A stretch of DNA of 64,000 nt, from the IMG/VR virus record IMGVR_UViG_3300036766_002286; one strand, given 5' to 3'. This DNA is from a virus. Taxonomy: Duplodnaviria; Caudoviricetes. The notes beneath the pieces are model-generated. The model saw only the letters and a list, made by a program, of their open reading frames with translations. It was not told the DNA's origin and did not search any database. This document shows, one piece after another, positions 1 to 64,000 of this stretch. Every line of letters begins with the position of its first letter. Position 1 is the first letter of the stretch. Made by a program: the position numbers and the translations under genes.

Positions 1-824
1 TTGATCTAAGTGATCAGGTAGTAGAGCAAGTTATTAGACCGACTGGTCTAATTGACCCAGAGGTTATAATTAAGCCCACTTCTGGCCAAATAGACGATCT
101 TATTGAGGCTATACAGGTAAGAATAAAAAACAGCGAGCGTGTTTTGGTGACAACATTAACTAAAAAAATGGCAGAAGACTTGTCAGAATATTTAGTAAAT
201 CAAAATCTCAAAGTTAGGTATTTGCATTCTAATATTAATACCGTTGAACGTATCGAAATTTTACGGTCTTTGCGTCTGGGCGAATTCGATGTACTTGTAG
301 GTATTAATTTATTACGAGAAGGCTTAGATCTTCCAGAAGTTTCTCTTGTTGCTATTTTAGATGCCGATAAGCAGGGTTTTTTACGTAGCCAAACTTCTCT
401 TATACAGATGTGTGGCCGGGCCGCTCGTAATGTGAATGGGCAGGTTATTATGTATGCCGATGTAATTACGCCCGCCATGAAAAATGCAATAGCTATAACA
501 AAGCGGCGCCGAAAACAACAAATTGCCTATAATCGTAAACATAATATAGATCCAAAGACCGTACAAAAAGCAATTGGAGATATCTTATCACTATTGCGGA
601 AAACAGACGATAAAAGCTCGCATCCAAAAAACGTAAAAGACATTCTTGACCGCGAAACTAAACTACAAGAGTTAGCGTTATTGCCTCAAGGTGAGTTAGC
701 ACTTTTAATACAAACTCTTACCGAAGAAATGGGTCAAGCTGCCTCCAACTTAAGCTTTGAAAAAGCAGCTCAACTCCGTGATGAAATAAAAGAACTGAGG
801 CGCGAATTACGCGACGCACAATAA
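1..824 (+). CDS. uvrB: Excinuclease ABC subunit B, C-terminal part (5' truncated by window edge)
   Basis: The frame is open from position 3 ([12 protein letters not shown]). It carries [34 protein letters not shown] and a C-terminal UVR motif ([11 protein letters not shown]). Confidence 0.97.
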
Positions 825-831
825 GCGACTT

Positions 832-3666
832 ATGACTAAAAACAAAATTACTATACGTGGAGCGCGTGAACACAACTTAAAAAATATTAGTCTCGAAATA
901 CCAAGAGATAAGCTGGTTGCTGTCACTGGACTTTCTGGATCAGGTAAATCTAGTTTGGCTTTCGACACCATATACGCCGAAGGACAAAGACGCTACGTAG
1001 AATCTCTTAGCTCATACGCTCGCCAATTCCTAGGCCAAATGGACAAGCCAGACGTAGATTTAATAGATGGACTTTCACCTGCGATAGCAATTGACCAAAA
1101 ATCATCATCCCATAATCCCAGATCAACGGTTGGAACTATTACAGAAGTTTATGATTATTTGCGACTACTCTATGCCCGTATCGGAGTGCAACACTGCATT
1201 AAAGATTCTACTAAATTATCAAAACTTTCCTTACAACAACTAGTTGATCATGTTTTACAGTTCCCAGATTCAACGCGTTTTTTGGTATTAGCTCCAATTG
1301 TGAGAGGACGTAAAGGTGAGTATGTTACATTATTAACAACAATTTCTGCTCAAGGATTTACAAGAGCACGCATAGACGGAGAAACTGTAGAAATTAATGA
1401 TTTTCTAAAACAAACTAAACGCCTAGCGCGCTATGAAACCCATACCATAGAAATCATTGTAGACAGGCTGGTGTCTAAAAAAGGTATACAACGCAGGCTC
1501 ACTGATTCTTTAGAAACAGCACTTAAGCTAGCTGACGGAGTAGCCCAAGCAGAAATACAAGCAACAAACGAATCTATTACTTTGAGTGCTAATCTTTCTT
1601 GTCCTAAATGCGCAACTAGCTACGAAGAGCCAGTACCTCGTAATTTCTCATTCAACTCTCCTTATGGTGCCTGTGAAACTTGTTTGGGGCTTGGTACTAG
1701 TTTTGAAGTAGACCCCGAGCTAATAATTCCAGACCCAAACCTAAGCATTGCTGCTGGCGCCCTCGCTCCGTGGCGTACGGCCCATACTCAATATTTTATT
1801 CGTACATTACACGTAATTGCCCAAGCCCACAATATTGATCTTTCTGAAAAATGGTCAAAGCTACCGAAAAAGGCGCAAAATATTATTCTACATGGTGGCG
1901 CTGATAACATCCAGGTAAAATATAAAAATAAATATGGACGTACCCGTGAATATAGTACATCATACGAAGGTATAGTTCCATGGATAAAACGTCGTCATAA
2001 AGATGCTGACAGTGATCACGCGCGTGATCTCTACGAGAGCTACATGCGTACTGTACCATGTTCTGCTTGTTTAGGCGCTCGTTTGAAACCAACTTCATTA
2101 GCGGTACTTATTAATGGTAAAAGTATTTCAGACGTGACAGCAATGTCGATTTCTGATTCAGCTAAATTTCTAAAAACTCTAAAATTAAATAATAAAGATT
2201 CTTTAATTTCAAAAAGTATAACTAAAGAAATAAATGCACGTCTGGGTTTTCTGTTGGACGTCGGCCTAGATTATTTAACCTTAGCCAGGTCTGCTGCTAC
2301 TTTGGCCGGCGGGGAATCACAGCGAATCAGACTTGCTAGTCAGATAGGTTCTGGTCTAGTGGGCACTTTATATGTGTTAGACGAGCCCTCTATAGGACTT
2401 CATCAACGCGACAATCACCGGTTAATTACTACTTTAAAAAAATTACGAGATCTTGGTAATACCGTTCTCATAGTAGAGCACGACGAAGATACAATTAGAG
2501 CCAGCGACTGGATAGTAGATATTGGTCCGGGTGCTGGTGAACACGGAGGTAAAGTAGTTTACAATGGGCCAGTAAAAGGAATTTTGAAAGTAAAAAATTC
2601 ACTTACCGGGCAGTATCTTTCCGGTAAAAAATCTATTGAAACCCCCCAAATCAGGCGCACACCTTCTAAAGAGTTTATTAAAATCAGAGGCGCTCGTGAG
2701 CATAATTTAAAAAATCTAAATGTTAAAATACCTCTAGGTTGTTTTGTGGCCGTAACCGGTGTATCTGGAAGCGGCAAGAGTACTTTAATACGAGATATTT
2801 TACTTCCTTCGATGATGCAAAAGATATATAAGTCAAAGCAAGCCCCAGGACATCATACCGGAGTTGATGGTATAGAACACATAGATAAAGTGATCGACAT
2901 GGATCAGTCTCCTATTGGGCGTACACCACGCTCAAACCCTGCTACTTATACTGGAGTATTTGATGATATACGCAAATTATTTGCTTCCACCCCCGAGTCA
3001 AAACTTAGAGGATATTTACCAGGTCGTTTCAGTTTCAATGTGCCAGGTGGCCGGTGTGAGGCTTGTAATGGCGACGGCACCCTAAGAATAGAAATGCATT
3101 TTTTGCCAGATGTGTATGTACCGTGTGAAACATGTAAAAGTGCCAGGTATAATAGAGACACCTTGGAAATTACATTTAAAGGTAAAAATATTTCTGAAAT
3201 TCTAAATATGCCTATTTCTAAGGCAGCAGAGTTTTTTGCTAACCAACCGAGAATATCTCGTTTCATGCAAACACTTATGGATGTGGGTTTAGGTTATGTT
3301 CGTTTAGGACAAGCTGCCCCAACGTTATCTGGAGGAGAAGCTCAAAGAGTAAAGCTAGCCACCGAGCTAGCCAAACGGGGTACTGGCCACACTATATATT
3401 TACTAGACGAACCCACCACAGGTTTGCACTTTGAAGACGTTAGGCGCCTTCTTGTAGTATTATCTAGACTAGTAGACCAAGGAAATACCGTATTGGTCAT
3501 TGAACATAATTTGGATGTAATTAAAACCGCAGACTGGATAATAGATCTGGGTCCAGAAGGCGGATCCGGCGGTGGAACAGTGGTAGCACAAGGTACTCCA
3601 GAAACAGTTGCAAAAATACCTGCTTCCCATACCGGGAAATATTTAGCTGAACTACTAAAAAAGTAA
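832..3666 (+). CDS. uvrA: Excinuclease ABC subunit A
   Basis: Two ABC modules ([35 protein letters not shown]) plus Zn fingers; 944 aa. Confidence 0.99.
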
Positions 3667-3672
3667 ATACAT

Positions 3673-5520
3673 ATGAAACGCCCCGACGTAATTATACCGA
3701 CTTCTCCAGGATCCTATCAATTTAAAGATGCCTCTGGTCGTATTATTTATGTAGGTAAGGCTCTTAATTTACGCTTGCGTCTAAATAGTTATTTTGGCAA
3801 TCAAGCTACAATGTCGGAGCGTACCACTGCCATGGTAAATCAAGCAAATAGTGTTGAATGGATAGAAGTAACCAACGAAATAGAAGCCTTACTTCTAGAA
3901 CATAGTTTGATTAAACATCATAAACCCAGGTTTAATATTCGTCTTAGAGACGATAAAAGTTATCCATTTCTTAGTGTGACAGTTGCAGAAAAATGGCCGA
4001 GGGCAGCTGTTACACACTCACACAAGCAAAAAGGTGTTAAATACTTCGGTCCATACCCACAGGCACATGCAATGCATAGTACCTTAGATCTGTTATTACA
4101 AAGCTTTCCAATACGTTCTTGCTCTGAGGCAAAATTTAAGCAACATGAAAATCTAGGCAGCCCGTGCTTATTATATCATATAAAAAAATGTTCAGGCCCA
4201 TGCATTAAAGCTGTAACCCAGGATCAATACGCCTCGTATGTCAAAGATTTCACAGATGTTTTAGCCGGAAAACCAAACGAGGTATCTATACAGCTTACAC
4301 AAAAAATGCAAAACGCCGCTTCCGATCTAGAGTTCGAAAAAGCAGCAAAATTTCGTGATCAACTTAATGCAGTACAAACTATCACGAGTAAGCAATTAAT
4401 GGTAGCCAACTTTACTGAAAATATGGATGTAATAGGTATTGCGTATGACACTCTACAAGTTTGTGTGCAACTATTTTTTGTACGCAACGGCTATGTGATA
4501 GGAAAAAATAGTTATGTTATTGACCTAGTTGAAGACATAACTAAGGCTATGCTTACTAGTCGTATAATCGAACGCCTATATGATAATGATGCAAGCCTAA
4601 GTATCCCTGACACTATTTTAGTACAAGTAGAGCCTACAGAAAAAACTATTTTAGAAAAATGGCTTTCGCACTCTCTACAATCCCGGGTTCAGATTTTAGT
4701 TCCGCAGCGTGGAGATAAAAGAAAACTTCTTGAATTAGTTACTCAAAATGCCAGCCAAGAAATGAATCGCAATCGTATACGTCGAGCTTCTGACCAAACC
4801 ACCAGATCAAAAGCGTTAGCCGAACTACAAATTTTACTTAAAATGCCGGTGGTACCTTTGCGCATTGAATGTTATGATATGGCACATTTACAAGGCACTG
4901 ATTATGTAGGTTCTATGGTAGTAATGGAAGACGGCCTGCCCGTAAAATCTGAGTATAGGCGTTTTAAAATTAAAACTGTTCCTGGTAATGACGACTATGC
5001 TGCCATGCGCGAAGTCTTAACCAGGCGCCTGACTGCTTATCTTAATGCGCTTTCGACTTTAACTTCTGATACAAAGTTTTCGTATCCGCCACAACTGATA
5101 TTAGTGGACGGTGGAAAGGGCCAACTAGAAATAGCCCGCCAAGTTGTTAGTGACCTAGGCCTCATCGGTACCATCTCTATAGCCGCCCTAGCGAAACAAT
5201 TTGAAGAAGTATTTATTGTAGGAGATCCTGATCCTATAAATATCTCACGTAATTCAGAGGCGTTATTTATGTTACAAACCATACGTGACGAGGCTCACAG
5301 GTTTGCAAATAAATTTCATCGCGAACTTAGAGACAAGCGCATGATAAAAAGCGCACTAGACGATATACCAGGGCTGGGGGCCAGTCGCGCTAAACGTCTT
5401 ATAAAAGCTTTTGTAAATGTAAACGGAGTCAAAAAAGCAACAAAAGAAGAACTTGCTGGCTTACTCTGGTTACCAGCGGCTGTGGCTGATAGCATATATA
5501 AGAAATTTCACAGTCACTAA
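3673..5520 (+). CDS. uvrC: Excinuclease ABC subunit C
   Basis: GIY-YIG N-terminus (IIYVGKALNLR), RIECYD, DGGKGQ, RDEAHRFA and HhH. The last 2 codons and the stop come from the adjacent IS end. Confidence 0.98.
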   Translation: MKRPDVIIPTSPGSYQFKDASGRIIYVGKALNLRLRLNSYFGNQATMSERTTAMVNQANSVEWIEVTNEIEALLLEHSLIKHHKPRFNIRLRDDKSYPFLSVTVAEKWPRAAVTHSHKQKGVKYFGPYPQAHAMHSTLDLLLQSFPIRSCSEAKFKQHENLGSPCLLYHIKKCSGPCIKAVTQDQYASYVKDFTDVLAGKPNEVSIQLTQKMQNAASDLEFEKAAKFRDQLNAVQTITSKQLMVANFTENMDVIGIAYDTLQVCVQLFFVRNGYVIGKNSYVIDLVEDITKAMLTSRIIERLYDNDASLSIPDTILVQVEPTEKTILEKWLSHSLQSRVQILVPQRGDKRKLLELVTQNASQEMNRNRIRRASDQTTRSKALAELQILLKMPVVPLRIECYDMAHLQGTDYVGSMVVMEDGLPVKSEYRRFKIKTVPGNDDYAAMREVLTRRLTAYLNALSTLTSDTKFSYPPQLILVDGGKGQLEIARQVVSDLGLIGTISIAALAKQFEEVFIVGDPDPINISRNSEALFMLQTIRDEAHRFANKFHRELRDKRMIKSALDDIPGLGASRAKRLIKAFVNVNGVKKATKEELAGLLWLPAAVADSIYKKFHSH

Positions 5521-5700
5521 AAACATAGAAAAACGTTCCCCTGATTAGGCTGTATTTTTTATGTTCTTTTCGATGAGGCACCTATTATCTGATGTCTTAT
5601 CTAGCCCGTCTGTATTTGGGCGTATTGGTATTATCGCAGCAAATGATCGGCGACCGAGAGCGCGGTACGCTTTCGGGTCGGTTGCCCATTTCTGGGTAAA
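5510..5700 (-). ncRNA. Candidate omegaRNA scaffold overlapping tnpB 3' end (boundaries approximate)
   Basis: DNA conservation with copy 2 continues past the stop to the element end. Both copies have a GCCC-N10-GGGC hairpin. The position is typical for TnpB guide RNAs. Confidence 0.5.
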
Positions 5701-7161
5701 CCGTTCGTCGATGTTATGCAGGATTCGACTACGACCGTATTGCAACCTCGCACTCGGTAACGTCCGTCGTGACTTCACTGTACGAGCAGCTTCAATATCG
5801 GCGTGCCCTTTTCGTCCACAAAATTTGCAACGAAAATCTTCTTTAACTCTATTTCGGTCGTCTACGAAACCACAACCGACACATTCCTGTGACGAATACG
5901 GTGCGGGAACGATAGTGACTTCAAGCCCTCTGTCTTGGGCAAGGTCTTGAAGTTTCCGTTTCACCTGGGCGCGACCAGTACGACTAATAACTCTGTTCAA
6001 ACATCTAGAGAGGCCCCCGTGACGAAAATCTAGTTCCTCGACAACAAGAACACTTGGGTCATAAAGGTCTACAATACGGTTCAAGGTTCGGTTGATCTCG
6101 TTTTTCGCATACGCCCTGATACGGGATTGCATTGCACGATATCGGTGCGAGTTGTTAGGTTTTATCCCTTGACGTTGTAAGGAGGCGGTAAGGGTAGTGA
6201 GTTCACTATCAATGTTCAAAAGCCAGGTGTAAAACGACCGTCCCATCAGATCGCCTTCGGAGGTAGCAAACAACGTTTTCATGCCCCAGTCTAATCCAAC
6301 CACACCACCAGTTGGGATGGGACGGTATTCTGGTGTGGCGTCTTTTATCATACGGATGACCACAGGTCCAGTTTTCGGGACCGTGATTTGGGTCGCATTG
6401 GTCCAGACACCGCAGCGTTCTTGTTCATGAAACGTGGAGCGCACCGGGAGCAAAATGGGCTTACCTTTAGTCAGAGTGGAGAACCGTATCCAGTAATCAA
6501 ACGACTCAGCAGTTTTAGGGGGTTCCCATTGACAGACAGGCCCGTCAAGTTTCATCGTTCGTACTTTAGACAGGTTCGGTAGCCGAACAAGGTGTTTGCG
6601 GACATGTTTCACGATACAGCGTAATAATTTCATGTCCTCAACACTGACCACATCAAACGTGCCAGCAACTTTTTGATGCTTTCCTGTAGCCTCATCAAGA
6701 ACCGAACCTGGCACAAGATAGGTGCCATCCTGTTCAGTGTGGTACCAATGTTGGGAAGCGTTCACATAAAGCAACCGATTTTTACGCTCAAAAGACAGGT
6801 GAGAAAGATTCTTTACAATCTCACGCACCGAAATTTCCACAAGGGCAGCCCACGAGGATAGTGTTTCGCAGGCTTGATTGTTCGCGCTCCGTTTGTAGCG
6901 CTCCGATAATATGGTCTCTAAAAGTTTTGGGTCAGCGCAGTTGTAAATCTTTTTACCTGACAGTACACGGCGATACTGCATCGCGCACGCTTTCACCAGG
7001 AGTGGCACATAAGCGCGATAGACGTCACAGATCTGTTGTTCTTTACCGGCGTTCAGCGCACAAGGCATTTCAAAAGTGCGTAACACCCGACCCTTGGGCT
7101 TTGCTTTACGGGTTAGTTTTTTTGTTATGACTGTTGTGGATACTGGATCGGACAACTTCAT
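5545..7161 (-). CDS. tnpB: RNA-guided endonuclease TnpB-family protein (538 aa)
   Basis: RuvC-I GLDWG, RuvC-II VVEELDF, Zn ribbon CVGCG..CKFCG and RuvC-III HADIEAA. Confidence 0.92.
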   Translation of the reverse strand: MKLSDPVSTTVITKKLTRKAKPKGRVLRTFEMPCALNAGKEQQICDVYRAYVPLLVKACAMQYRRVLSGKKIYNCADPKLLETILSERYKRSANNQACETLSSWAALVEISVREIVKNLSHLSFERKNRLLYVNASQHWYHTEQDGTYLVPGSVLDEATGKHQKVAGTFDVVSVEDMKLLRCIVKHVRKHLVRLPNLSKVRTMKLDGPVCQWEPPKTAESFDYWIRFSTLTKGKPILLPVRSTFHEQERCGVWTNATQITVPKTGPVVIRMIKDATPEYRPIPTGGVVGLDWGMKTLFATSEGDLMGRSFYTWLLNIDSELTTLTASLQRQGIKPNNSHRYRAMQSRIRAYAKNEINRTLNRIVDLYDPSVLVVEELDFRHGGLSRCLNRVISRTGRAQVKRKLQDLAQDRGLEVTIVPAPYSSQECVGCGFVDDRNRVKEDFRCKFCGRKGHADIEAARTVKSRRTLPSARLQYGRSRILHNIDERFTQKWATDPKAYRALGRRSFAAIIPIRPNTDGLDKTSDNRCLIEKNIKNTA

Positions 7162-8776: not shown

Positions 8777-10087
8777 ATGGAAGCATCTTTGCCTACAACT
8801 GCTCTGTTTACAGATCGTTATGAGCTAACTATGCTAGACACTGCTGTTAGGGCCGGTTATGCCGATACCCCAGCATGCTTTGAAGTATTTACCAGAAATT
8901 TGCCAACAGGTCGCAGGTACGGAGTGGTTGCTGGTATTAGCAACATACTTGAAGCAATTGCAACTTTTAAATTTGATAAAGATACTCTTGCGTGGTTAGA
9001 GGGTCAAAACTTTTTATGTACGGAAACTTTAGATCGCTTATCTAAGTACAATTTTAGTGGTAAAATTGATGCATATCGGGATGGAGAACTGTATTTTCCA
9101 TACAGCCCCATTTTGACACTAGAAGCTGCTTATGGCGATGGTATAATTCTTGAAACTATAATTTTATCAATCCTTAATCACAGCTGTGCAATTGCTTCCG
9201 CCGCCTCAAGAATGCATGAAGCGGCTAACTTTCGTCCTTTGATAGAAATGGGCAGCAGGCGTACACATCCCAATGCTGCAGTCGATGCAGCGCGCGCTGC
9301 CTATATTGCTGGCTTCGCATCAACATCTAATTTAGCTGCAGGTAAACTTTACAATATTCCAACTGTCGGTACCGCTGCGCACGCTAGTATTTTAGCTGCC
9401 CCAAGCGAGCGAGAAGCATTTGATGCTCAGATTGCTGCCCAAGGAGTTGCTACAACATTACTAGTAGACACCTTTGATACTACAATAGGAATTCAAACTG
9501 CAATAGCCGCAGCCAACCATTTTGGAGCAGTCGGTCCAGGTGCCATCCGAATAGATTCAGGGGATCCTATTACACAAGTTCCGGTAGCCCGAAAATTGCT
9601 TGATTCGCTTGGAGCTAAAACTACGAAAATTGTTTTGACTGGAGATCAAGATGAGTACTCTATACAGCGGTGCGCGGCCCTTCCGGTAGATGTTTTTGGT
9701 GTAGGTACATCCCTGGTTACGGGCTCTGGTCATCCAGCTGCGGGTTTAGTGTATAAACTAGTATCAATACAAGATGCTTCAGGCATCTCGCGTAATGTAG
9801 CTAAAAAGTCAATAGGAAAAATATCTACTGGCGGTCGCAAGGTAGCCTGGCGTGAATATGGCTCAGACGGTTTTGCTACCGGCGAATATTTTACAAACAA
9901 TCAAAACGCACCAATAGTAACTAATATGAGACAATTGCAAGCATGCGTATTTGATAAGGGTTTGACAGATGCGGCTGGTGATATAGAAGATGCCCGTATC
10001 CGGCATGCTTTATCCTTAGCTGAAATGTGTGCATCTGATCTAGATATATCACCAGGAGCTCCAGCTTTTATCGGAAAACAAATCTAA
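8777..10087 (+). CDS. pncB: Nicotinate phosphoribosyltransferase
   Basis: LFTDRYELTM, EMGSRRTH, TSNLAAG, GTAAH, LLVDTFD, IRIDSGD and VYKLV motifs. Confidence 0.95.
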   Translation: MEASLPTTALFTDRYELTMLDTAVRAGYADTPACFEVFTRNLPTGRRYGVVAGISNILEAIATFKFDKDTLAWLEGQNFLCTETLDRLSKYNFSGKIDAYRDGELYFPYSPILTLEAAYGDGIILETIILSILNHSCAIASAASRMHEAANFRPLIEMGSRRTHPNAAVDAARAAYIAGFASTSNLAAGKLYNIPTVGTAAHASILAAPSEREAFDAQIAAQGVATTLLVDTFDTTIGIQTAIAAANHFGAVGPGAIRIDSGDPITQVPVARKLLDSLGAKTTKIVLTGDQDEYSIQRCAALPVDVFGVGTSLVTGSGHPAAGLVYKLVSIQDASGISRNVAKKSIGKISTGGRKVAWREYGSDGFATGEYFTNNQNAPIVTNMRQLQACVFDKGLTDAAGDIEDARIRHALSLAEMCASDLDISPGAPAFIGKQI

Positions 10088-10102
10088 ACACAAGGAGACT
10101 AT

Positions 10103-36060: not shown

Positions 36061-36062
36061 TT

Positions 36063-53118: not shown

Positions 53119-53910
53119 TTACTCGAATTTACTTCCATCAGGCATAATCGCGCCCGCCACCTCAGCGAATTCGAAGTCACAATCGGTCATTATCGCACCT
53201 GTAAAATCAGCGTCTCTTAAGTCCGTCCGTCGAAAATCTATCTTGTCCAGATTAGCATAAATAAAGTTTGCCTTCACAAGTCTTGCATTATTGAATCTTG
53301 CCGAAGTAATCGTGGATTTAGTAAAACTACAATACTCGCACCTACCCCCAGCAAAAGTTACCTCTAACATGCGCGCGCCATCAAGTTGCCCATAAGACAC
53401 GTCTGCTTGCATTAAATTACTTCTAATAAGTTCCGCACCCCGTAAATCAGCCTTATGTAAAACTGCTGCCACAAAACTACAATCTATAATAGTTATTTTG
53501 GATAAGTCAGCTTCCGACAGCACGCTACCTGTAAAGTCTGTCTTGTTAAGATTTGCTTTACTAAATTTTGTTTTAACAAGGTTTGCATTACTGAATCTTG
53601 TTTCAGCTAGAGTAGTTCCTGTAAAATTAGCACTATGACCCTTAGTCGAATCAAAACTTGCACCCCGCAGGTCCGCTCCTTCAAAATTAGCACTAGATAA
53701 AATTAATTCTTTCAAATTTACACAACTAAGATTAGCCGACCTAAAATTAACACCAGTAAAGTTAACTTTATTTTCACTTAAAGCAACCCCACGGAAGTCG
53801 CAATGAGACAAGTCAAGATTAGCAGCACTGAATCCCCACACACCACAAGATAAAAAAGCAAAACCCCCATGTCTGTCAATATATTTTATATCAGTTCTCG
53901 TAGCTTTCAT
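53119..53910 (-). CDS. Pentapeptide repeat protein (array #11)
   Basis: KYIDRHG ... MPDGSKFE. Confidence 0.95.
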   Translation of the reverse strand: MKATRTDIKYIDRHGGFAFLSCGVWGFSAANLDLSHCDFRGVALSENKVNFTGVNFRSANLSCVNLKELILSSANFEGADLRGASFDSTKGHSANFTGTTLAETRFSNANLVKTKFSKANLNKTDFTGSVLSEADLSKITIIDCSFVAAVLHKADLRGAELIRSNLMQADVSYGQLDGARMLEVTFAGGRCEYCSFTKSTITSARFNNARLVKANFIYANLDKIDFRRTDLRDADFTGAIMTDCDFEFAEVAGAIMPDGSKFE

Positions 53911-53911
53911 G

Positions 53912-54415
53912 TTAGTTCCCCTGATCAAAATAATAAAAAGGATAGACAGTGCCGTCGGGCATAATAGCACCTCTCATATGGCAATTAATAAAGGTGGTGC
54001 CAAGAATGTTTGCGCCTTTCAAATTGGCATACTCCAAGACCGCAGAACCAGCCAAAGTAGCACCATATAAATTCACTTTAAATAGGTTTGCCCGTCTAAA
54101 ACTTACGGTATCAAGCACAGCGAAAGCAAGGTTAGCTCCTTGAAGTACTATATCTTCGCAACGCACCCTCTCAAGGGTTGCGCCTGTCAAATCCGCACCC
54201 TCTAAATCAGCTCTGTACATGGCAGCCCCGACCAACTTAGCCCCGTGTAGATTGGCGCCCTGTAGTTTTAGATAGCTAAGGTTAGTAAAACTTAAATCAG
54301 CATAGCTGAGGTCACAATCACGCAGGTCTTTACCTAGCCAAGGTCCACCCCACGGCAGTTCACATGAAGTACCTTCTCGGTCAATATATTTTATGTTTCC
54401 TCTTATATATTTCAT
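53912..54415 (-). CDS. Pentapeptide repeat protein (array #10)
   Basis: KYIDREG ... MPDGTVY. Confidence 0.95.
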   Translation of the reverse strand: MKYIRGNIKYIDREGTSCELPWGGPWLGKDLRDCDLSYADLSFTNLSYLKLQGANLHGAKLVGAAMYRADLEGADLTGATLERVRCEDIVLQGANLAFAVLDTVSFRRANLFKVNLYGATLAGSAVLEYANLKGANILGTTFINCHMRGAIMPDGTVYPFYYFDQGN

Positions 54416-54473
54416 GTTCTCTCCCTTATATTATTCTCCATTTTCACAGTTGTGTAATGCAGTCATTATAATT

Positions 54474-54971
54474 CTATTTATGTACGCTACCATCCGGCAT
54501 AACCATATCTGCCATGTTTGCCCTTGTAAAATCAGCGCCCATAATATTTGCACCCAGCATTGATGCTTCCCGCAAGTCAGCTCCTATAAAACTAGCTTTG
54601 AATAAGTTTGCTTTGGTTAAATCTGCAGCATATAAAGTTGCACCCAAAAAGTTACAATAACTAAGGTCCGCTCCTTCAAATATTGTGCGTTTGCACCCAG
54701 CATGGCTGAAGTCAGCCCCATGACAGTTTGCCCCGACTAGAATCGCACCCTTGAGATTGGCACGAGCAAAACAGCCATCTATAAGACAAGATCCTGTCAA
54801 ATCAACTTTCAGCATGACGGCGCGAGAAAAGTTAGCCCCGCGCAACGCGCAACGACTTAGGTCAGAAAAAGGAAGATTACACTCAGTAAGATTAATATTT
54901 TCTAAGTTTTCATCCATTCTTACATATGCAGGCTTCATATTTTTATCATAATAGAAAACGTCTGATTTCAC
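54474..54971 (-). CDS. Pentapeptide repeat protein (array #9)
   Basis: FYYDKN ... MPDGSVHK. Confidence 0.95.
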   Translation of the reverse strand: MKSDVFYYDKNMKPAYVRMDENLENINLTECNLPFSDLSRCALRGANFSRAVMLKVDLTGSCLIDGCFARANLKGAILVGANCHGADFSHAGCKRTIFEGADLSYCNFLGATLYAADLTKANLFKASFIGADLREASMLGANIMGADFTRANMADMVMPDGSVHK

Positions 54972-55019
54972 TGGGTTTTCTCCAGTAATTTATCATCATT
55001 CAATGCAATCTCTAAAATA

Positions 55020-55439
55020 TTACACATGCTTACTCCCGTCCACCATGATAGCACCTCTAAGTTCAATAGCGCGCTCGAAATCACAGTTTACTACATTAGC
55101 GCCAGTTAAGTCGGCATTCTGAAAATACGCCCCGCCTACTTCTGTTTCAAGCATATTAGCACCCTTTAGATTAGCGCTGCTCAAGTTACTGCTAGTAAAG
55201 TTTGTTTTAAATAAATTTGCTTTTTCAAATATTCCACCATTAAGATATCCACCTGTAAAATCGGCACTAGTCAGGTCTGCTCCACTAAAGTTTGTAAACA
55301 TACAACTTGCAAAAATAAAGCCAGCACCGCACAACACCGCCCCCCGCATGCTACAATAGGAGAAATCAACTCCTGCAAAGCCAGTATTCGCTAAAACACC
55401 CGGGTTTCCTTCCCTCTCAATATAGTTGATATTTTTCAT
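55020..55439 (-). CDS. Pentapeptide repeat protein (array #8)
   Basis: NYIEREG ... MVDGSKHV. Confidence 0.93.
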   Translation of the reverse strand: MKNINYIEREGNPGVLANTGFAGVDFSYCSMRGAVLCGAGFIFASCMFTNFSGADLTSADFTGGYLNGGIFEKANLFKTNFTSSNLSSANLKGANMLETEVGGAYFQNADLTGANVVNCDFERAIELRGAIMVDGSKHV

Positions 55440-55999
55440 AAGGTTTTGTCGCCGCGCTGAAACACACTATAACGGCTAAAGAAATCAAAAGTATAAATAC
55501 TGCCATCCGGCATTGTTGCTCTTTCCAAGCTAGCGCCTGTAAAATCAGCGCACCCGATGTTCGCGCCCTCTAAATTAGCACGGCTTAGATCCGCGCAACG
55601 TAGATCTGTTTTATAAAGGTTTGCTTTAAAAAAGTTTACATTATATAAGTGTGCATTTTCAAATATAGCACCCTCAAGATTTGCTCCTTCAAAGCTAGCG
55701 CTTCCACACACAGCCCCACTGAGGTTTGCGCCCCGCAAGTTCACGCCGCACAAATCAGCACCGGTCAGGTCTGTTTCCCTTAAGTTAGCAGCGCTAAGAT
55801 TTGCACCCCGAAGTATACTTCTAAACATGTTTGCTTTACAAAAATTTACTTCACTTAAATCAGCCCTGGTCAGCTCAGCTCCTTGAAAATCAGCACCCCG
55901 CAGATCTTCGTCCGACCGGGCTCGTCCCCACACCAGTTCCCGCAAAACACCCTCACGGTCTATATATTTGACATTAGTTTGCATTGCTGTGCTCTCCAA
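55436..55999 (-). CDS. Pentapeptide repeat protein (array #7)
   Basis: KYIDREG ... MPDGSIY. Confidence 0.95.
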   Translation of the reverse strand: MESTAMQTNVKYIDREGVLRELVWGRARSDEDLRGADFQGAELTRADLSEVNFCKANMFRSILRGANLSAANLRETDLTGADLCGVNLRGANLSGAVCGSASFEGANLEGAIFENAHLYNVNFFKANLYKTDLRCADLSRANLEGANIGCADFTGASLERATMPDGSIYTFDFFSRYSVFQRGDKTL

Positions 56000-56001
56000 A
56001 C

Positions 56002-56511
56002 CTACTCATGTCTGCTCCCATCTGGCATTATAGCTCCCAAAAGGTTGCAACCAGTAAAGTTTGTGCCCGCTATATCTGCACCAAAAAAACTAGCTCCCGT
56101 ACAATTGGCATTTGTAAAATCGCTACCCTTAAGGTTAGCCTTCGTAAAGACACAATTTTCTAAATTTGCCTTAAACAAGTTAGCCCCTTGTAAATGAGCG
56201 CCCAATAAGCTTGCATCAAACATAGACACCCCACTAAGATCACAGTGAGCAAGATTTGCCTTATCAAGCAATATGAAAGGCATGTCGGCCCCATGAAAGT
56301 TAGCTCCGACCAAATTAGCTCCTTCAAGATTAGCATTCTCTAAATTAGCACAGGTGAAGTTAGCACCTCTAAGGTCTCTTCCATTAAGAGTCACACTAAA
56401 TAAGTAAGCCCAAGATAAATCAATTCCAACAAGGTTAGTACCCTTTTTTACCATAACAGTTTTCCCTGCCTTATCAAGATATATAAAATCATACTTTGCC
56501 CCATTATACAT
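56002..56511 (-). CDS. Pentapeptide repeat protein (array #6)
   Basis: IYLDKAG ... MPDGSRHE. Confidence 0.95.
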   Translation of the reverse strand: MYNGAKYDFIYLDKAGKTVMVKKGTNLVGIDLSWAYLFSVTLNGRDLRGANFTCANLENANLEGANLVGANFHGADMPFILLDKANLAHCDLSGVSMFDASLLGAHLQGANLFKANLENCVFTKANLKGSDFTNANCTGASFFGADIAGTNFTGCNLLGAIMPDGSRHE

Positions 56512-57178
56512 GTATACTCCCGTTTGGCATGATGGTTTCAGTTAGAATTGCATCATGTAGCCTCGAGATTTTCAAGCTCGCACCGAAAAGATTTGCATGA
56601 GAAAAATTTGTGCAAGTAAAAGTCCCTTTAGTCAAGTTAGCTTTCTCCAAGTCAGCATTCGAGAAATCAGCATTTGTTGAATCAGCGCCCTCTAAATCAG
56701 CTCCCCGCATGTCTGCAAAACTAAAATCTGCTTCAGCTAAGACTGCCTCGCACAAGAATGTTCGATGCTTATCATCCGCACCACACATAATAGCATTGCT
56801 AAAACAGGCCTGGTATAAATAAGCCTTACTAAAACTTGCTTTAGTTAAATTAGCATAAGTGAAACTACAACCGATGGCTTGTACTTTATATAAGACAGCT
56901 CCAGCTAAGTGAGCATTCGAGAAATTAGCAGACATTAGATTTGTCTCAGAAAGATTGGCTTTAGTTAGATCACAGTTTGACATATCAGCATTTTTACAAT
57001 TAGCACCCGCCAAGTCCGCTCCCGCCAAAGATAAACCTTTAAAATCTATGTCATGTAAATCAAGATCCCATAATACAGCATCTGCCAAGCTTTCTTTGTT
57101 TTCTATAGCATCAAGCACTTCAGATCTAGTAAATATCCGATCGTCAGGATGTCTAAAGTCGTAGCTACCTTCAGGCAT
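56504..57178 (-). CDS. Pentapeptide repeat protein (array #5)
   Basis: FTRSEVL ... MPNGSIHV. Confidence 0.95.
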   Translation of the reverse strand: MPEGSYDFRHPDDRIFTRSEVLDAIENKESLADAVLWDLDLHDIDFKGLSLAGADLAGANCKNADMSNCDLTKANLSETNLMSANFSNAHLAGAVLYKVQAIGCSFTYANLTKASFSKAYLYQACFSNAIMCGADDKHRTFLCEAVLAEADFSFADMRGADLEGADSTNADFSNADLEKANLTKGTFTCTNFSHANLFGASLKISRLHDAILTETIMPNGSIHV

Positions 57179-57671
57179 GTATACTCCCATCTGGCATAAC
57201 TGCACCCCTAAGGTTAGTATTAGTAAAGTTACAACCCTCTATATATGCACCAAAAAAATTAGCATACCTACAATCGGCAGATGAAAAATCAGCGCCCTTA
57301 AGGTTAGCCTCCGTAAAATCAGCCTCGTCCGCACGTACGCCTCTTAACGTAGCTCCTTGTAAATTAGCGCCCCGCAAATCTGCTCGCTGCATATCAGCAT
57401 CCGTTAGATCACAATTATGTAGATCTGCTCTATTAAATGAAGTGTCCATCAAGACAGCCGCAATCATACTTGATCCACTAAGGTCAGCGCCGCTCAGGTC
57501 AGCGGCTATAAAGTCAGCACGCGCCAAACGGGCGCCCATAATATCTCTTCCACTGAGATCACAACCAGATAACTCACAACCAGATAAATCAATTCCCACC
57601 AAACTAACACCCTTTTTTAAAACAGCAGCCTTATCATTACTATCAATATAGTCAATATCTTGATTTTTCAT
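57171..57671 (-). CDS. Pentapeptide repeat protein (array #4)
   Basis: DYIDSND ... MPDGSIHA. Confidence 0.95.
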   Translation of the reverse strand: MKNQDIDYIDSNDKAAVLKKGVSLVGIDLSGCELSGCDLSGRDIMGARLARADFIAADLSGADLSGSSMIAAVLMDTSFNRADLHNCDLTDADMQRADLRGANLQGATLRGVRADEADFTEANLKGADFSSADCRYANFFGAYIEGCNFTNTNLRGAVMPDGSIHA

Positions 57672-57841
57672 ATTAGGTAAACACTCCCATCTAGCATAAT
57701 AGCGTCTTTAAGGTTTCTTCCCTCGAAGTTTACTTCAGTAAAACTAGTATAAGATAAATCAATTCCCTCAAGACTTTCGTTTTTTCTCAAAACATGTGGG
57801 TTATCATCCTCATCAGTATATTCAATATCATGATCATTCAT
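57668..57841 (-). CDS. Minimal pentapeptide repeat protein (array #3, 57 aa)
   Basis: EYTDEDD N-cap, ~5 pentapeptides, MLDGSVY; coupled to both neighbours. Confidence 0.75.
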   Translation of the reverse strand: MNDHDIEYTDEDDNPHVLRKNESLEGIDLSYTSFTEVNFEGRNLKDAIMLDGSVYLI

Positions 57842-58607
57842 AGATACTCCCATCGGGCATAGTAGCCCCACTCAAGTTAGCACCCTTAAATACTATACCC
57901 GCAAATTGGTCCATACTTAAACTAACTCCCCTAAAAACCCCGCCAATTAAATTAGCATAGCTAGAATGACACTTGGTTAAATTTGCCCCTCTTAGCTTTG
58001 CACCCTCAAACCTGGTATTTGCAAGGTCTGTTTTAGATAGGTTCGCTTCGCATAAAGTAGCATACTTAAAATTTGCATTGCTTAAATTACAGTCTTCTAG
58101 GTCCGCTAGAGTTAGGTTCGCGCGGGTGAAATCAGCCCCTGCTAGGTGTCTTTCTCGTATATCTGCCCTTGTTAAATTGGCATCGCGAAAATTAGTGTAA
58201 GTAAATATCTTCTTCCAACTCGCGTCGTTTTTGTCCCCAATCATAATTGCACCAACTAAGATAGCTTTTTGGAAATTGGCATCTCTGATGTCTGTTTTAG
58301 TCATATTGGCTTCAAAAAAATTAGCATTTTTTGCAACGCATTCTCGCATATTAGCTCCAGCTAAACTACAATTAGACATGTTAGCCGAATCGAGACTAGC
58401 TCTTAGTAGCTGCGCACGAGTCAAGTCACACCTAACCAGATTAGCATTTTGTAGTTGAGTTGCCCCCAACATAGCCCCGGACAGGCTAATCCCAGAAAAA
58501 TCAATACCATTTAAATCAAGTCCCGTCAAATTACAATCCGCCAAAGTACCTCTGTTAGCTATAATTTCTAAAACCTGTTCACGAGATAAGCTCTTGCCGT
58601 TTTTCAT
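57834..58607 (-). CDS. Pentapeptide repeat protein (array #2)
   Basis: LSREQVL ... MPDGSIYE. Confidence 0.95.
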   Translation of the reverse strand: MKNGKSLSREQVLEIIANRGTLADCNLTGLDLNGIDFSGISLSGAMLGATQLQNANLVRCDLTRAQLLRASLDSANMSNCSLAGANMRECVAKNANFFEANMTKTDIRDANFQKAILVGAIMIGDKNDASWKKIFTYTNFRDANLTRADIRERHLAGADFTRANLTLADLEDCNLSNANFKYATLCEANLSKTDLANTRFEGAKLRGANLTKCHSSYANLIGGVFRGVSLSMDQFAGIVFKGANLSGATMPDGSIYE

Positions 58608-58743
58608 ATAAATATTCTCCCTTTAGTGTTTGTAAAGCCCAGTTTAACTAAATTTACCATATGAACACTTGCTGCTAGCACGTGATAAACAATCATTATT
58701 AGTATGTTTTTATGATTTAAGACCATACAATGCTCAAAGCGAA

Positions 58744-59243
58744 CTATTTATGAATACTCCCATCTGGCATAATAGCGCCAAAAAGTTTACAACCAGTAAA
58801 GTCGCATCCCTCTATATCTGCTCCTTTAAAATTAGCACCACACAAGTCAGCACCTGTGAAATCAACTTTTTTAAGATTGGCACCAGTTAAGTCAACATAA
58901 TCTAGAATTGCATAAACTAATTTCGCACTATACATACTAGCCCCAATCAAAGTAGTCCCGTACAGCTCAGCTTCAGTTAAATTTGCGTAATTAAGGTTTG
59001 CTTTATTTAAGGTTACTTGCGACAGGTTTGTTTTAATCATGGTAGCAAAAGTTAAATCAGCACCTTCAAGGTCTGTGTGTGCTAAGTCACTCGCATCAAA
59101 GTTACAACCTCTAAGATCTCTACCCACAAGCTTTGCATTGTGTATCAGACAATACGATAAATCAATTCCTACAAGATTAGCATCCCCCGCAAAATAGCAA
59201 ACTTTCCATCTATATCCATATACTTAACATCAAATTTTGTCAT
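58744..59243 (-). pseudogene. Pentapeptide repeat protein (array #1), frameshift in a G5 run near 59185
   Basis: AAGGAGG RBS plus MTKFDVKYMDIDG in one frame; DANLVGIDLSY...MPDGSIHK in another. Confidence 0.85.
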
Positions 59244-59470: not shown

Positions 59471-59824
59471 ATGAGTGATCGAAAAGCCCGCAACGCAGCT
59501 AGCGCTTCAGCCCTGGAAGTATACAAAGCAGCTGAGCTTCTAGCTTCTGTAGAATATCAGGCTGTATTGAAACCCGCTGAAGCCATTTATCAAGCTGTCA
59601 GTAGAGCCGCACATCGCGCCTATCAGGAGACCCATTATTCAATTGGCAACAGCGAATCCAGAGCAGCCCAGGAAGCCGCTTTTAACACTCTTTTATGCGA
59701 CGCCGCCAAGTCTAGAGATACTATTGTTGCTCCAGCAAAAGCTAGGTACCATGCAGTTGTTGCCGCCGCATTCGCTGTATATATTGAAACCACAGCCAAA
59801 ATCGCGAGTGGAGATTTATCATGA
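59471..59824 (+). CDS. Ala-rich helical protein, paralog 1 of 3
   Basis: GGAGG RBS; ends YIETTAKIASGDLS. Confidence 0.85.
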   Translation: MSDRKARNAASASALEVYKAAELLASVEYQAVLKPAEAIYQAVSRAAHRAYQETHYSIGNSESRAAQEAAFNTLLCDAAKSRDTIVAPAKARYHAVVAAAFAVYIETTAKIASGDLS

Positions 59825-60186
59825 ATGATCGTAAAGACCGTAGAGCAGCAATCGTTGCCGCCCAAGCTATATATCAAACCATCCAAAGTCAAGCATTTGA
59901 AGAGTATAGAGCCGTAGAACTCCCAGCCACCGCCGCATATGAAGTTTGTCGGAACACAGCTGTCCCAGGCGCAAACGATCTAGGGGCTGTGCATCCTAGA
60001 GACTTCATGCAACACGAAATCGCCCAAGCACTCGCAGCCGGACGTCAAATGTTCCTAGCTGATGCTCTAGCAGCTAGAGACGCCACAATCGCTCCCGCCA
60101 AAGCCAAATATCAAGCAACTGTGGCCACCGCATTTGCTGCGTATATCGAAGCTTGTGCAAAAATCGAAAGCGGAGACTTATCATGA
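59821..60186 (+). CDS. Ala-rich helical protein, paralog 2 of 3
   Basis: ATGA overlap; ends YIEACAKIESGDLS. Confidence 0.85.
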   Translation: MNDRKDRRAAIVAAQAIYQTIQSQAFEEYRAVELPATAAYEVCRNTAVPGANDLGAVHPRDFMQHEIAQALAAGRQMFLADALAARDATIAPAKAKYQATVATAFAAYIEACAKIESGDLS

Positions 60187-60524
60187 GCTCCCGCGGCACA
60201 ATTCGACCTGGCCTCGAGCCCGCCAAAAGCATATTGAAAGCCGCCCAAGATCAAACTTCTGCAAGATATAAGCCCATACTACAAGCAGCTCAAACTAAAT
60301 ATTTCGCGGGCTGTGCTGCAGCTAAGCAAGCCCTTATGGAAACCCTTGATGCTGATCACACTTATGCTCAAAAGTTAGCCTATGAAACTATTATACAAGG
60401 TCTAAAAGACACTAGAAACGCTACTATCCGCGCCGCCGAAGCCGAATATAATACAGCCATGACTAGTGCTCTTGCTATATATATTGAAACCGCAGCCAAA
60501 ATCACCACAGGAGATTTATCATGA
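60183..60524 (+). CDS. Ala-rich helical protein, paralog 3 of 3
   Basis: ATGA overlap; ends YIETAAKITTGDLS. Confidence 0.85.
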   Translation: MSSRGTIRPGLEPAKSILKAAQDQTSARYKPILQAAQTKYFAGCAAAKQALMETLDADHTYAQKLAYETIIQGLKDTRNATIRAAEAEYNTAMTSALAIYIETAAKITTGDLS

Positions 60525-60730
60525 GCAGTAACGCAAAAGACACTCTAACCGATATCTATACTTTACGTATCGATATTTATGATGCCTTAAAAAAGTTCCA
60601 AGATTCTCAAAATATTAAAGTTAGTGACGAAGATTGGATGATTTTAGTTAAACACGCTGATATTTTAGCAGAGGTTTTAGTTCAAGCAGCCGCATCTGCA
60701 GCCGACATTAGCCGCTATTCAAGATACTAA
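60521..60730 (+). CDS. Hypothetical protein
   Basis: GGAG RBS; ATGA overlap. Confidence 0.7.
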   Translation: MSSNAKDTLTDIYTLRIDIYDALKKFQDSQNIKVSDEDWMILVKHADILAEVLVQAAASAADISRYSRY

Positions 60731-60752
60731 AGTCAGCTAATAGGAGGCATTA

Positions 60753-60974
60753 ATGAGCATAGACAACCAACCAATAATATTAAACGAAACACAAGTTATT
60801 CAATATCAAGACATATTATGGCCTTTAGCAGATAGTTTTGATGATATTGACTTGTCCGAAGCGACCGCTCCCGGTGTTACGTTAACAACAGAGGATATAG
60901 ACACATTCATCTCTGAATTCATAGAGGCAGTAACAAAACTTTCCGCTCTCAAACTACAAATAGAAATAGGTTAA
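60753..60974 (+). CDS. Small acidic hypothetical protein
   Basis: AGGAGG RBS. Confidence 0.72.
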   Translation: MSIDNQPIILNETQVIQYQDILWPLADSFDDIDLSEATAPGVTLTTEDIDTFISEFIEAVTKLSALKLQIEIG

Positions 60975-60978
60975 TATA

Positions 60979-61176
60979 ATGAGCGATAGTCAATGGCAAC
61001 TGATAGATGAATACGGATGTGATAGATGTGGCCGTACTGTTGAAAATGGCTCAGGACACTATTCAGATGACGAGACTGATGACCGCATCTGCGCTGACTG
61101 TGCGTCACTTGCCGCCCCAATTATATACGAAACAATACATTCCGAAGCTAGTAATCGCCACAATAGTACACTATAA
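60979..61176 (+). CDS. Small putative Zn-finger protein
   Basis: CDRC...CADC. Confidence 0.68.
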   Translation: MSDSQWQLIDEYGCDRCGRTVENGSGHYSDDETDDRICADCASLAAPIIYETIHSEASNRHNSTL

Positions 61177-61191
61177 CCAAAGGAGCTAATC

Positions 61192-61470
61192 ATGAGTAAA
61201 GATAAACTGAAAATTACCATACCAAAAGCAACAAAACGCACTGAGTCTGTGGCTCTCTGGCTCCAGGAGAAGTTTCATTCGAAGATGTTGACGATAACTG
61301 CTGCTTGCGTCGTAATATGTGACCAATGTGGCCGAAGTGATACAACCCAATACAAGACTATTGCCCTCGCTATTGAAGGCACAACGAAAGAAGGCTGGCA
61401 ACACAATGAAGTCAACGGAACAGCCGACGAATCAATTTGTCCTGAATGTCTCACAAAAGGAGCAAAATAA
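61192..61470 (+). CDS. Small putative Zn-finger protein
   Basis: AAGGAG RBS; CDQC...GW...CPEC. Confidence 0.75.
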   Translation: MSKDKLKITIPKATKRTESVALWLQEKFHSKMLTITAACVVICDQCGRSDTTQYKTIALAIEGTTKEGWQHNEVNGTADESICPECLTKGAK

Positions 61471-61883
61471 TGAGCGAAACAAATGAAGTAAACATAATTC
61501 CAGAAGTTTCCAAGCCAGAGATTAAAATAAAAACTAAAGCGGAACTCGCAACAGTTCTTGATGCAACTGAAGCTCTCTTAGATAAAGCCACAGTTGACGC
61601 CAAGTCCACTGATGCTGCTTTTGATAAAGCTAGCAAGCGTTGGAATAAAGTTTGGGAGGCCCGTGTCGCATCTGACGCCACCTGCATTTACCCAGTTGAT
61701 GATTCAGTCCCTGTAAGCTATGAGGCCCTAGATGCCGAATATACTAAAGTTCGAGAAGATTGTGAGAGCGTCAGAACAATCAGAGATCAAGCAAGAATTG
61801 CTCGCAATAAAGCAGCAGCTGGCTTAGAAAAAGCACTCAGTGCCCGGGATCGAGCAAAAGTTGCTTTTGATCAAGCTGTATAG
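61470..61883 (+). CDS. Ala-rich coiled-coil protein
   Basis: AAGGAG RBS; TAATG overlap. Confidence 0.75.
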   Translation: MSETNEVNIIPEVSKPEIKIKTKAELATVLDATEALLDKATVDAKSTDAAFDKASKRWNKVWEARVASDATCIYPVDDSVPVSYEALDAEYTKVREDCESVRTIRDQARIARNKAAAGLEKALSARDRAKVAFDQAV

Positions 61884-63589: not shown

Positions 63590-63808
63590 ATGAACGATAG
63601 TTTACAACCAAAATTAAGCTCAGTGCAACTAGCAAAAGCCCATGCCCTTTTTGATACGTTGTGGATGACAGTAAATGATACTACACTTTGGAATAATGGC
63701 CTCCCAGTCGGTATGACAGCCGAAAGCTTAGATGTGCTCATATCTCAAACCAAAGACACTCTCAACGAGCTGCTACTACTTAAAACAGAAGTCCACACCA
63801 ACCAATAA
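63590..63808 (+). CDS. Hypothetical protein
   Basis: 72 aa; its leader resembles those of neighbouring genes (AGAACACT-ATG). Confidence 0.6.
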   Translation: MNDSLQPKLSSVQLAKAHALFDTLWMTVNDTTLWNNGLPVGMTAESLDVLISQTKDTLNELLLLKTEVHTNQ

Positions 63809-63823
63809 CAACGGAGAACCACA

Positions 63824-63949
63824 ATGACTGCTCATCATATCTTCCCCGAAGCTGTATTTGTAGACGCGCGTGACGGCGAGCTTGTCATTCACACTTGTTT
63901 CACTCGCTTCACCCAGTTTACCGGTAGTAGTGGACTTGATCCGCTGTGA
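63824..63949 (+). CDS. Short hypothetical ORF (41 aa; possibly truncated or frameshifted)
   Basis: GGAGAACCACA-ATG leader like those of upstream genes. Confidence 0.35.
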   Translation: MTAHHIFPEAVFVDARDGELVIHTCFTRFTQFTGSSGLDPL

Positions 63950-64000
63950 CTGTTTTACCTACCGACGCAATCACGCACTTAATTGATTGCTACGACTCAT

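Follow-up and report, generated by a model that had tools for sequence, protein, structure and literature searches.

The IMG/VR record IMGVR_UViG_3300036766_002286 raises the question of what kind of replicon combines bacterial excision-repair and translation genes with a replication machinery of another lineage. We analysed a 64,000-nt stretch of this record (the window), which is part of a 616-kb mosaic replicon. Its uvrBAC genes, tyrS, prfA and a hisS fragment trace by sequence to Ilumatobacteraceae-type Acidimicrobiia, whereas those for replication and recombination are shared with large replicons of an unclassified family. An earlier note, made from the letters of the window alone, had proposed a giant extrachromosomal element or a jumbo phage that captured host genes. 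The explanation that we favour, tentatively and at somewhat less than an even chance, is a giant non-viral extrachromosomal element in, or permanently touching, an Acidimicrobiia host of low guanine-plus-cytosine (GC) content.

The window has a GC content of 0.414, even along its full length, and a coding density of 84%; all three stop codons are in use (38 TAA, 16 TAG and 16 TGA). Its proteins map to a JGI/IMG contig of 616,293 bp from one sediment metagenome, which bears out the suspected large size. Window DNA was detected in a single DNA run, that of the sediment metagenome, and was listed for no RNA run; an exact 41-mer of the window had no match in the viral_contigs or metagenome_contigs collections. 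The sediment run also yielded three Logan contigs with window proteins, of 77.9, 58.9 and 28.3 kb. The last of these (28,262 bp, with an even depth of about 40) covers position 6,253 to beyond 25,900 with zero differences and joins both gene classes, linking tyrS and prfA to the replication backbone, so that a fault of a single assembler does not explain the gene juxtapositions. Each of the two copies of a TnpB-type insertion marks a break in the Logan assemblies. Gene content was read directly for 64 kb of the 616 kb and, for about 10 kb upstream, as Logan gene lists, which contain PolA, a Toprim protein, FtsH and full-length UvrB. The genes named in the earlier note are real, as Pfam confirmed uvrBAC, tyrS, pncB/pncA, prfA, DUF1643, a DnaB-like gene, pcrA, a TM0106-type nuclease, half of hisS and dgt.

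Repair and translation genes of Acidimicrobiia type

The 3' part of uvrB, uvrA and uvrC form a block on the plus strand (3..5520; Pfam) with gaps of 7 and 6 nt. The C-terminus of uvrB lies at 3-824 (the full gene, encoding 703 aa, is on a Logan contig), followed by uvrA at 832-3666 and uvrC at 3673-5520. UvrA has both Walker A motifs and the zinc fingers intact. In a scan of 185,579 species genomes, its best matches were Acidimicrobiales, with 78% identity at locus L001 and 74% at locus L002, and other Actinomycetota reached 61-68%. A maximum-likelihood tree of UvrA, a check proposed in the earlier note, placed the window as sister to L001 (support of 96 in the Shimodaira-Hasegawa approximate likelihood-ratio test, SH-aLRT) inside an Ilumatobacteraceae-type clade with 100% support. 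The terminal branch was 0.28 for the window and 0.12 for L001. The same tight uvrB-uvrA-uvrC order occurs in L001 and L002.

Acidimicrobiia-type genes are also found on the minus strand. tyrS (7333-8610; Pfam) stands in an orphan context, prfA (17942-19012; Pfam and alignment) encodes release factor 1 (RF1), and only the 3' half of hisS is present (33851-34489; Pfam). Five Acidimicrobiia relatives (G001-G005) were searched. TyrS, in which the HIGH motif is present, is 58% identical to that of G001 and 48-52% to other relatives (G004, G005); RF1 shows 58% identity to G001 and 49-52% to the other relatives, and the HisS fragment 63% and 54-62%, respectively. Together with UvrB and UvrC, these proteins are each nearest to G001, and all five are more distant from G002, G004 and G005 than G001 itself is. 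Farther along the minus strand, a GNAT-HIT fusion gene and an HD-type dGTPase gene, dgt, occupy 34867..37235 (Pfam), with dgt at 36063-37235 (Pfam; PADLOC dGTPase model, E 1.7e-40). Dgt is a weaker, ungraded match, with 48% identity to G001 and 44-53% across the five relatives. On these comparisons, uvrBAC, tyrS, prfA and the hisS fragment derive from Ilumatobacteraceae-type Acidimicrobiia, and dgt probably does too.

RF1 has a terminal branch of 0.98 in its tree, and its best match among 5.8 billion proteins is 60% identical, so intermediate relatives are not known. Its codon-recognition tripeptide, normally P-x-T, reads SAT at residues 186-188 (RVQRV-SAT-E) where seven relatives read P(A/V)T, and the GGQ motif is intact. 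Since the first residue of SAT is the Ser of the release factor 2 motif SPF, the stop-codon specificity of this RF1 may be altered. The hisS open reading frame (ORF) is open over 212 aa, which correspond to residues ~207-416 of a 421-aa HisS and comprise the end of the catalytic core and the anticodon-binding domain; the N-terminal 206 residues of HisS had no match anywhere in the window.

The AT-richness remarked upon in the earlier note is genuine when compared with related UvrA loci, which have a GC of 0.49-0.73. The Acidimicrobiia-type genes have a GC of 40-42%, and their GC at third codon positions (GC3) of 0.28-0.37 equals that of the rest of the window, including its unknown genes. Because their GC3 is matched to the replicon while donor-type genomes have 49-72% GC, these are long-resident genes, not recent arrivals. 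They arrived as pieces of conserved operons and then drifted AT-rich on long, fast-diverging branches, and some acquired genes are decaying. A MacB-type ABC transporter operon (45217..47269, minus strand; Pfam and three-frame reading) is damaged in two genes: that of the ATPase has a frameshift near 47,040, and that of the permease contains the stop codon TAA in frame (45,805-45,807).

The absence of the usual neighbours, which the earlier note had pointed out, does set the window apart from its relatives. The L002 genes run polA-rpsA-coaE-uvrB-uvrA-uvrC-rapZ-gap-pgk-tpi. From this context the window retains only uvrBAC: the upstream 10 kb has no rpsA or coaE ahead of uvrB, and a TnpB-type insertion immediately follows uvrC. 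In G002 and G005, prfA and prmC adjoin; the window prfA is flanked on both sides by unknown genes, with no prmC, rho or rpmE beside it. Thus rpsA, coaE, rapZ, gap, pgk, tpi and prmC are absent from each conserved junction in the window. Judged as an Ilumatobacteraceae or Acidimicrobiia chromosome, the window has core genes nearest to that family, but it lacks the conserved operon contexts, with different flanks around uvrBAC, and it lacks orthologous replication and recombination genes (PcrA, DnaB-like ATPase, nuclease, PolA). The proposed capture of host repair and translation genes is borne out by their Ilumatobacteraceae-type origin, their detachment from native operons and the fragmentary hisS.

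The insertion behind uvrC is of TnpB type (Cas12f-like TNB; 5510..7110, minus strand; Pfam, with Cas12f-like PADLOC matches) and sits exactly where synteny with relatives stops. It has a second copy at 37286..38885 (minus strand; Pfam), 79.9% identical over 1.6 kb, and the two bracket a 30-kb segment. With a GC3 of 0.45-0.47 (0.47 in the copy behind uvrC) compared with ~0.3 elsewhere in the window, the TnpB copies seem to have arrived later. TnpA was not seen, and TnpB has no relative in 151 Acidimicrobiia genomes, so a host link via TnpB failed.

The replication and recombination backbone

A contiguous cluster at 22544..31988, with genes on both strands, encodes u151 (22544-22999), a KH protein (22854-23708), a DnaB_C-like ATPase (23831-25681; Pfam), u165, PcrA (26318-28645, minus strand; Pfam), an RNase_H_2/TM0106-type nuclease of 684 aa (28865-30919; Pfam), a thioredoxin-like protein and u211. 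The KH gene was called nusA-like in the earlier note, a description that does not hold for a KH-only protein that has neither the NusA N-terminal domain nor an S1 domain. About 95 relatives of the DnaB-like ATPase, 35-62% identical to it, lie on contigs that reach 810 kb in length; the large contigs of relatives include those of 810 kb (ENA ERZ28669063 ctg75563), 696 kb and 450 kb (JGI Ga0334999_0000001). On unclassified contigs of 135-810 kb, the cluster order is kept: a u151-like ORF, KH, DnaB-like ATPase, PcrA, TM0106 nuclease, thioredoxin and a u211-like ORF, then SSB. This order is found in L093, L095/L096, L101 and L107 and partially in L097, with identities to the window of 29-65% and locus GC values of 0.43, 0.46, 0.61 and 0.71. 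Most relatives have a type IV pilus operon (pilB/C/T/M) between the KH and DnaB-like genes, where the window has none.

Two proteins in particular tie the replicon to this family. Its PcrA is 45-48% identical to PcrA of the backbone family compared with 36-38% for Acidimicrobiia PcrA, and the upstream PolA has 3'-5' exonuclease and polymerase domains without a 5'-3' exonuclease domain, a make-up that matches L097 (the 810-kb relative) and differs from L002. The actinobacterial resemblance that the earlier note saw in the housekeeping proteins therefore applies to UvrA, UvrB, UvrC, TyrS, RF1 and the HisS fragment, less clearly to Dgt, and not to PcrA, while pncB was not found in the five Acidimicrobiia relatives. 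We conclude that this set of proteins (PolA, KH protein, DnaB-like ATPase, PcrA, TM0106 nuclease and thioredoxin) is that of an unclassified family of large replicons. Searches of 151 Acidimicrobiia, 401 Actinomycetota and 5 Nanopelagicales genomes did not recover this family, nor were the DnaB-like ATPase and nuclease found in G001-G005. Neighbours of the DnaB-like ATPase in a language-model search (Atlas) were mostly viral helicases, and it has no solved-structure relative by sequence. Alignment-based scans for its family in the metagenome_contigs and viral_contigs collections returned false pattern matches only.

Matches to phages and plasmids were sparse. Among window ORFs (64 of 616 kb), Pfam and PHROG searches gave no capsid, portal, terminase or tail match. 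PHROGs were run on 20 unannotated or poorly annotated ORFs; the DnaB-like ATPase weakly matched helicase family phrog_19 (E 5e-15), and otherwise just two small ORFs gave weak matches, which does not sustain the phage-like small genes of the earlier note. The DnaB-like ATPase and the nuclease had no tblastn match in 50,697 phage records, the backbone family no IMG/VR match by protein patterns or motif scan, and the DnaB-like ATPase no match in 72,556 plasmids. UvrA did match entries in the phage collection, which proved to be host DNA filed under phage names. The replicon belongs to none of the phage, plasmid or chromid families tested.

Paralogue arrays are a second feature shared with the family. 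Twenty pentapeptide-repeat genes stand head-to-tail on the minus strand at 47432..59127, with PF00805 found by Pfam in every member, and six further PF00805 genes lie at 32652-33431, 39094-39693, 43879-44646 and 61925-63568. These 26 stand-alone genes encode proteins of 127-283 aa, with best-paralogue identities of 37-50% and an MPDGS-type C-terminal cap in most; 31 relatives of G001 have just a few pentapeptide-repeat genes apiece. In L097, an 810-kb ENA contig, a tandem array of at least six paralogues (230-260 aa, 50-70% identical, not pentapeptide repeats) lies at 14.7-21.9 kb between the DnaB-like and nuclease genes. Since both the window and L097 carry arrays, paralogue arrays recur in this replicon family.

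Some side observations concern the backbone genes. The u151 and KH ORFs overlap by ~146 nt in different frames. The homologous regions of L105 (9338-10364) likewise overlap in two frames, and in L097 they are separate genes; the overlap could be a frameshift site or reflect mis-called starts. Within the DnaB-like gene, at ~24.9-25.0 kb, the window briefly aligns with another Logan contig of that sediment run, which is GC-rich and diverges beyond this stretch; the sample may also contain a GC-rich representative of this backbone family.

What the replicon may be

Several features argue for a giant non-viral extrachromosomal element. The replication genes are of one lineage, and the excision-repair genes and all translation genes of the window are of the other, host-derived class. 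The borrowed genes came as operon fragments, one of them a useless half gene; GC varies by 30 points within the family, and the paralogue arrays are large. Such an element would have repeatedly taken up chromosomal fragments from an Ilumatobacteraceae-type partner. Fragments that pay would have been retained (excision repair, the tyrosyl-tRNA synthetase, the altered RF1, NAD salvage), and useless pieces such as the half hisS and the macB operon left to decay. Insertion sequences sit at a synteny break, with TnpB right behind uvrC, and the replicon would expand paralogue families of its own, namely pentapeptide-repeat proteins and secreted Thr-rich proteins.

Among known systems, the closest concept is that of the Borgs, which are giant extrachromosomal elements found in Methanoperedens archaea (PMC9605863, PMC11208441). 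Borgs share the size class of 0.6-1 Mb (PMC9605863, PMC11208441), have many genes related to a specific host lineage at a GC below that lineage, consist mostly of hypothetical genes, have multicopy families and a backbone conserved across elements, and fit neither the plasmid nor the virus class. Unlike Borgs, which are archaeal and have one coding strand per replichore and pervasive tandem direct repeats, this replicon is bacterial, codes on both strands and is nearly devoid of such repeats; in addition, its backbone relatives encode SecA, RuvAB and pili. The Inocles of oral Streptococcus, giant extrachromosomal elements of ~350 kb, are comparable in being a family of large bacterial elements that metagenomics brought to light and that plasmid and phage databases lack (PMC12340149). 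They differ in host phylum, and the present replicon is nearly twice their size and has host core genes. Chromids and megaplasmids are likewise large secondary replicons with core-type genes. However, chromids have the composition of their chromosome and plasmid-type replication and partition genes, none of which was seen in the window, and the nearest donor-type genomes lie 8-30 GC points above this replicon.

A number of observations weigh against an extrachromosomal element. Genes are carried on both strands of the window, and its tandem repeats amount to three short arrays in 64 kb, both unlike Borgs. Pfam found no replication-initiator, partition, conjugation or virion gene in the window, and the upstream 10 kb encodes FtsH and a Toprim protein. 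The window gave 0 tRNAs, 0 Rfam families and 0 ribosomal proteins; its lack of tRNAs was dropped as an argument against a cell after a control, in which ~200 kb of genuine actinobacterial chromosome loci contained 1 tRNA. Backbone relatives encode type IV pili, SecA, RuvAB, SSB, a PMT_2 glycosyltransferase and MgtC. Their RuvB is 51-52% identical to all five Acidimicrobiia proteins and scores the same against RuvB of Pseudomonas, Thermus and Thermotoga, and their SecA is likewise equidistant from all phyla; both look like an independent deep lineage rather than captured host genes. Finally, contig L101 sits in a metagenome-assembled genome (MAG) labelled Candidatus Paceibacterota.

These properties of the relatives bear most directly on a second explanation, which is less likely than the first but a serious contender. 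The contig could be all or most of the chromosome of an ultra-small bacterium that depends on a host and comes from an unclassified lineage resembling the candidate phyla radiation (CPR). Its backbone would be native, and the Acidimicrobiia-type genes would have been taken from an actinobacterial host, for example by pilus-mediated DNA uptake, some replacing native genes and some remaining as debris. The PilB/PilC/PilT/PilM, SecA, RuvAB, SSB and glycosyltransferase genes of the relatives, their large surface proteins, the deep branching of their RuvB and SecA and the binning of one of them as Paceibacterota all favour a cell. So do contigs of 0.4-0.8 Mb, which are genome sizes of ultra-small bacteria, the lack of the backbone family in phage, plasmid and IMG/VR collections, the secreted proteins in the window and FtsH upstream. 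Episymbiotic Patescibacteria such as the Saccharibacteria on Actinobacteria (PMC10633639, PMC12206443) have replicons of 0.6-0.8 Mb, type IV pili (here in relatives of the backbone, not at the corresponding position of the window) and large surface proteins; they are linked to actinobacterial hosts, and transfer of genes from host to symbiont is plausible.

On the other hand, at least five separate host-derived loci in 64 kb are far above usual reports for episymbionts, and the share of host-type core genes is very high. All translation genes seen are of host type, one of them a useless half, and ~60 distinct genes in ~105 kb of backbone relatives include no translation gene. A GC range of 43-71% in one family is unusual for such cells, with 61-71% in some relatives, and the pentapeptide-repeat expansion and 84% coding density are unlike streamlined genomes. 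That expansion is not a known trait of Patescibacteria, and we found no paper on pentapeptide-repeat expansions in them. No marker gene occurs in the window or fetched loci, and placement in this group rests on the MAG label of L101.

An improbable explanation is the chromosome of a reduced, AT-shifted, fast-evolving Ilumatobacteraceae descendant, in which the repair and translation genes would be vertical, the backbone and PolA a foreign island, and the gene order scrambled by insertion sequences. It accounts for the universal housekeeping genes tested, which apart from PcrA are nearest to G001, and requires the fewest transfers, one or two (the 9.5-kb contiguous cluster and PolA) compared with five or more. 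Bacteria confined to hosts typically show long branches, an AT shift, pseudogenes and TnpB copies, and TnpB at the synteny break behind uvrC fits as well. Against it, hisS is truncated and its N-terminal half is not in the window; rpsA, coaE, rapZ, gap, pgk, tpi and prmC are gone from conserved junctions; the replication-type genes PolA and PcrA are of a foreign class; and the RF1 ceiling of 60% identity leaves no known intermediates.

A jumbo or mega phage of Actinobacteria with host-derived auxiliary genes, the other possibility raised in the earlier note, is very unlikely. Huge phages, from which aminoacyl-tRNA synthetases and release factors are known, likewise have such genes away from host operons, a GC below host relatives and a phage-like helicase. 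PolA with its 3'-5' exonuclease, the DnaB-like helicase, Toprim, thioredoxin and the nuclease together look like a replication set of T7 type, viral proteins predominate among the Atlas neighbours of the helicase, and one small ORF has a weak Lar-like anti-restriction match. However, the 64 kb gave zero matches to virion, structural or packaging genes, the backbone proteins are unmatched in the 50,697 phage records and IMG/VR, and relatives encode pili, SecA, RuvAB and glycosyltransferases. A complete uvrABC, FtsH, secreted surface proteins with Sec signals and a CapA homologue also set this replicon apart from huge phages. That the assembly fused an Acidimicrobiia genome with DNA of a second organism, as the adjoining of two gene classes of different ancestry might suggest, is hardly credible, given uniform GC and GC3 over both classes, donor-type relatives of 49-72% GC compared with 40-42% in these genes, and the 28-kb contig of a second assembler that links the classes at even depth without differences.

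Starting from the favoured extrachromosomal element, a bolder claim would be that the replicon represents the first known bacterial family of Borg-like giant extrachromosomal elements, of 0.4-0.8 Mb, with a GC of 41-71% tracking that of their hosts and a shared replication and recombination backbone. The present member would reside in a low-GC Acidimicrobiia and carry assimilated uvrABC, a release factor with the hybrid SAT motif and a very large pentapeptide-repeat repertoire. We put this forward with clear reserve, as a possibility that is rather more likely to fail than to hold; a literature search found no paper on such giant elements in Actinobacteria.

Remaining genes and biological meaning

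NAD salvage is represented at 8777..11725 by pncB (8777-10087) and pncA (11120-11725), both on the plus strand and identified by Pfam, with a small ORF between them. Downstream, two paralogous secreted Thr-rich, Cys-rich proteins of 558 and 562 aa are encoded at 11877-13553 and 14577-16265 (plus strand), separated by a 271-aa ORF. Their translations show signal peptides and poly-Thr linkers, one of which is encoded by a 27-nt tandem repeat at 12106-12229, and their C-terminal halves are 43% identical. The pair had no Pfam or PHROG match, and the Cys-rich C-terminal domain fits no known family. A role as virion proteins was rejected in view of the signal peptides and poly-Thr linkers.

An AAA+ ATPase gene with AAA_lid_6 (minus strand) and a DUF1643 gene (21479-22030, plus strand) lie within 19433..22030 (Pfam; only weak PADLOC matches). 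Genes for a Fic-domain protein, CapA (PGA_cap), two unknown ORFs and an M14 carboxypeptidase occupy 39887..43775 (Pfam), and small coupled ORFs of unknown function at 59471..61883 (plus strand) gave no Pfam and no convincing PHROG match. Beside the hisS fragment, a 164-aa ORF (33373-33867, minus strand) weakly matches a Lar-like restriction-alleviation PHROG (E 1e-4). PADLOC returned generic matches only (dGTPase, GajB-like for PcrA, Fic, HIT) and no assembled defence system.

On reading of the sequence, at least 12 genes have a -10-like box (CACTAT, CACAAT, GACAAT or TAGTAT type) whose end lies 6-8 nt ahead of the ATG, for example those at 8777, 11877, 13649, 14577, 17297, 21479, 28645, 31000, 41610 and 42987. 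The genes concerned are of the backbone and unplaced classes, with no Acidimicrobiia-type gene among them, and other genes have GGAG-type ribosome-binding sites instead. Such boxes close to the ATG suggest leaderless transcripts, which are common in Actinobacteria.

If the replicon is an extrachromosomal element, Borg-type biology, that is, giant non-viral replicons assimilating host core genes, would extend to bacteria and reach a globally abundant group of freshwater and sediment Actinobacteria. It would also mean that excision repair as a complete system, along with an altered release factor, can reside outside the chromosome. If it is instead a cell, it would represent an ultra-small lineage, as yet unclassified, in which several core genes taken from the host identify that host as an Ilumatobacteraceae-type Acidimicrobiia; for such bacteria, hosts are seldom known. 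Either way, the cluster of KH, DnaB-like, PcrA, TM0106-nuclease and thioredoxin genes provides a practical metagenome marker for the whole family.

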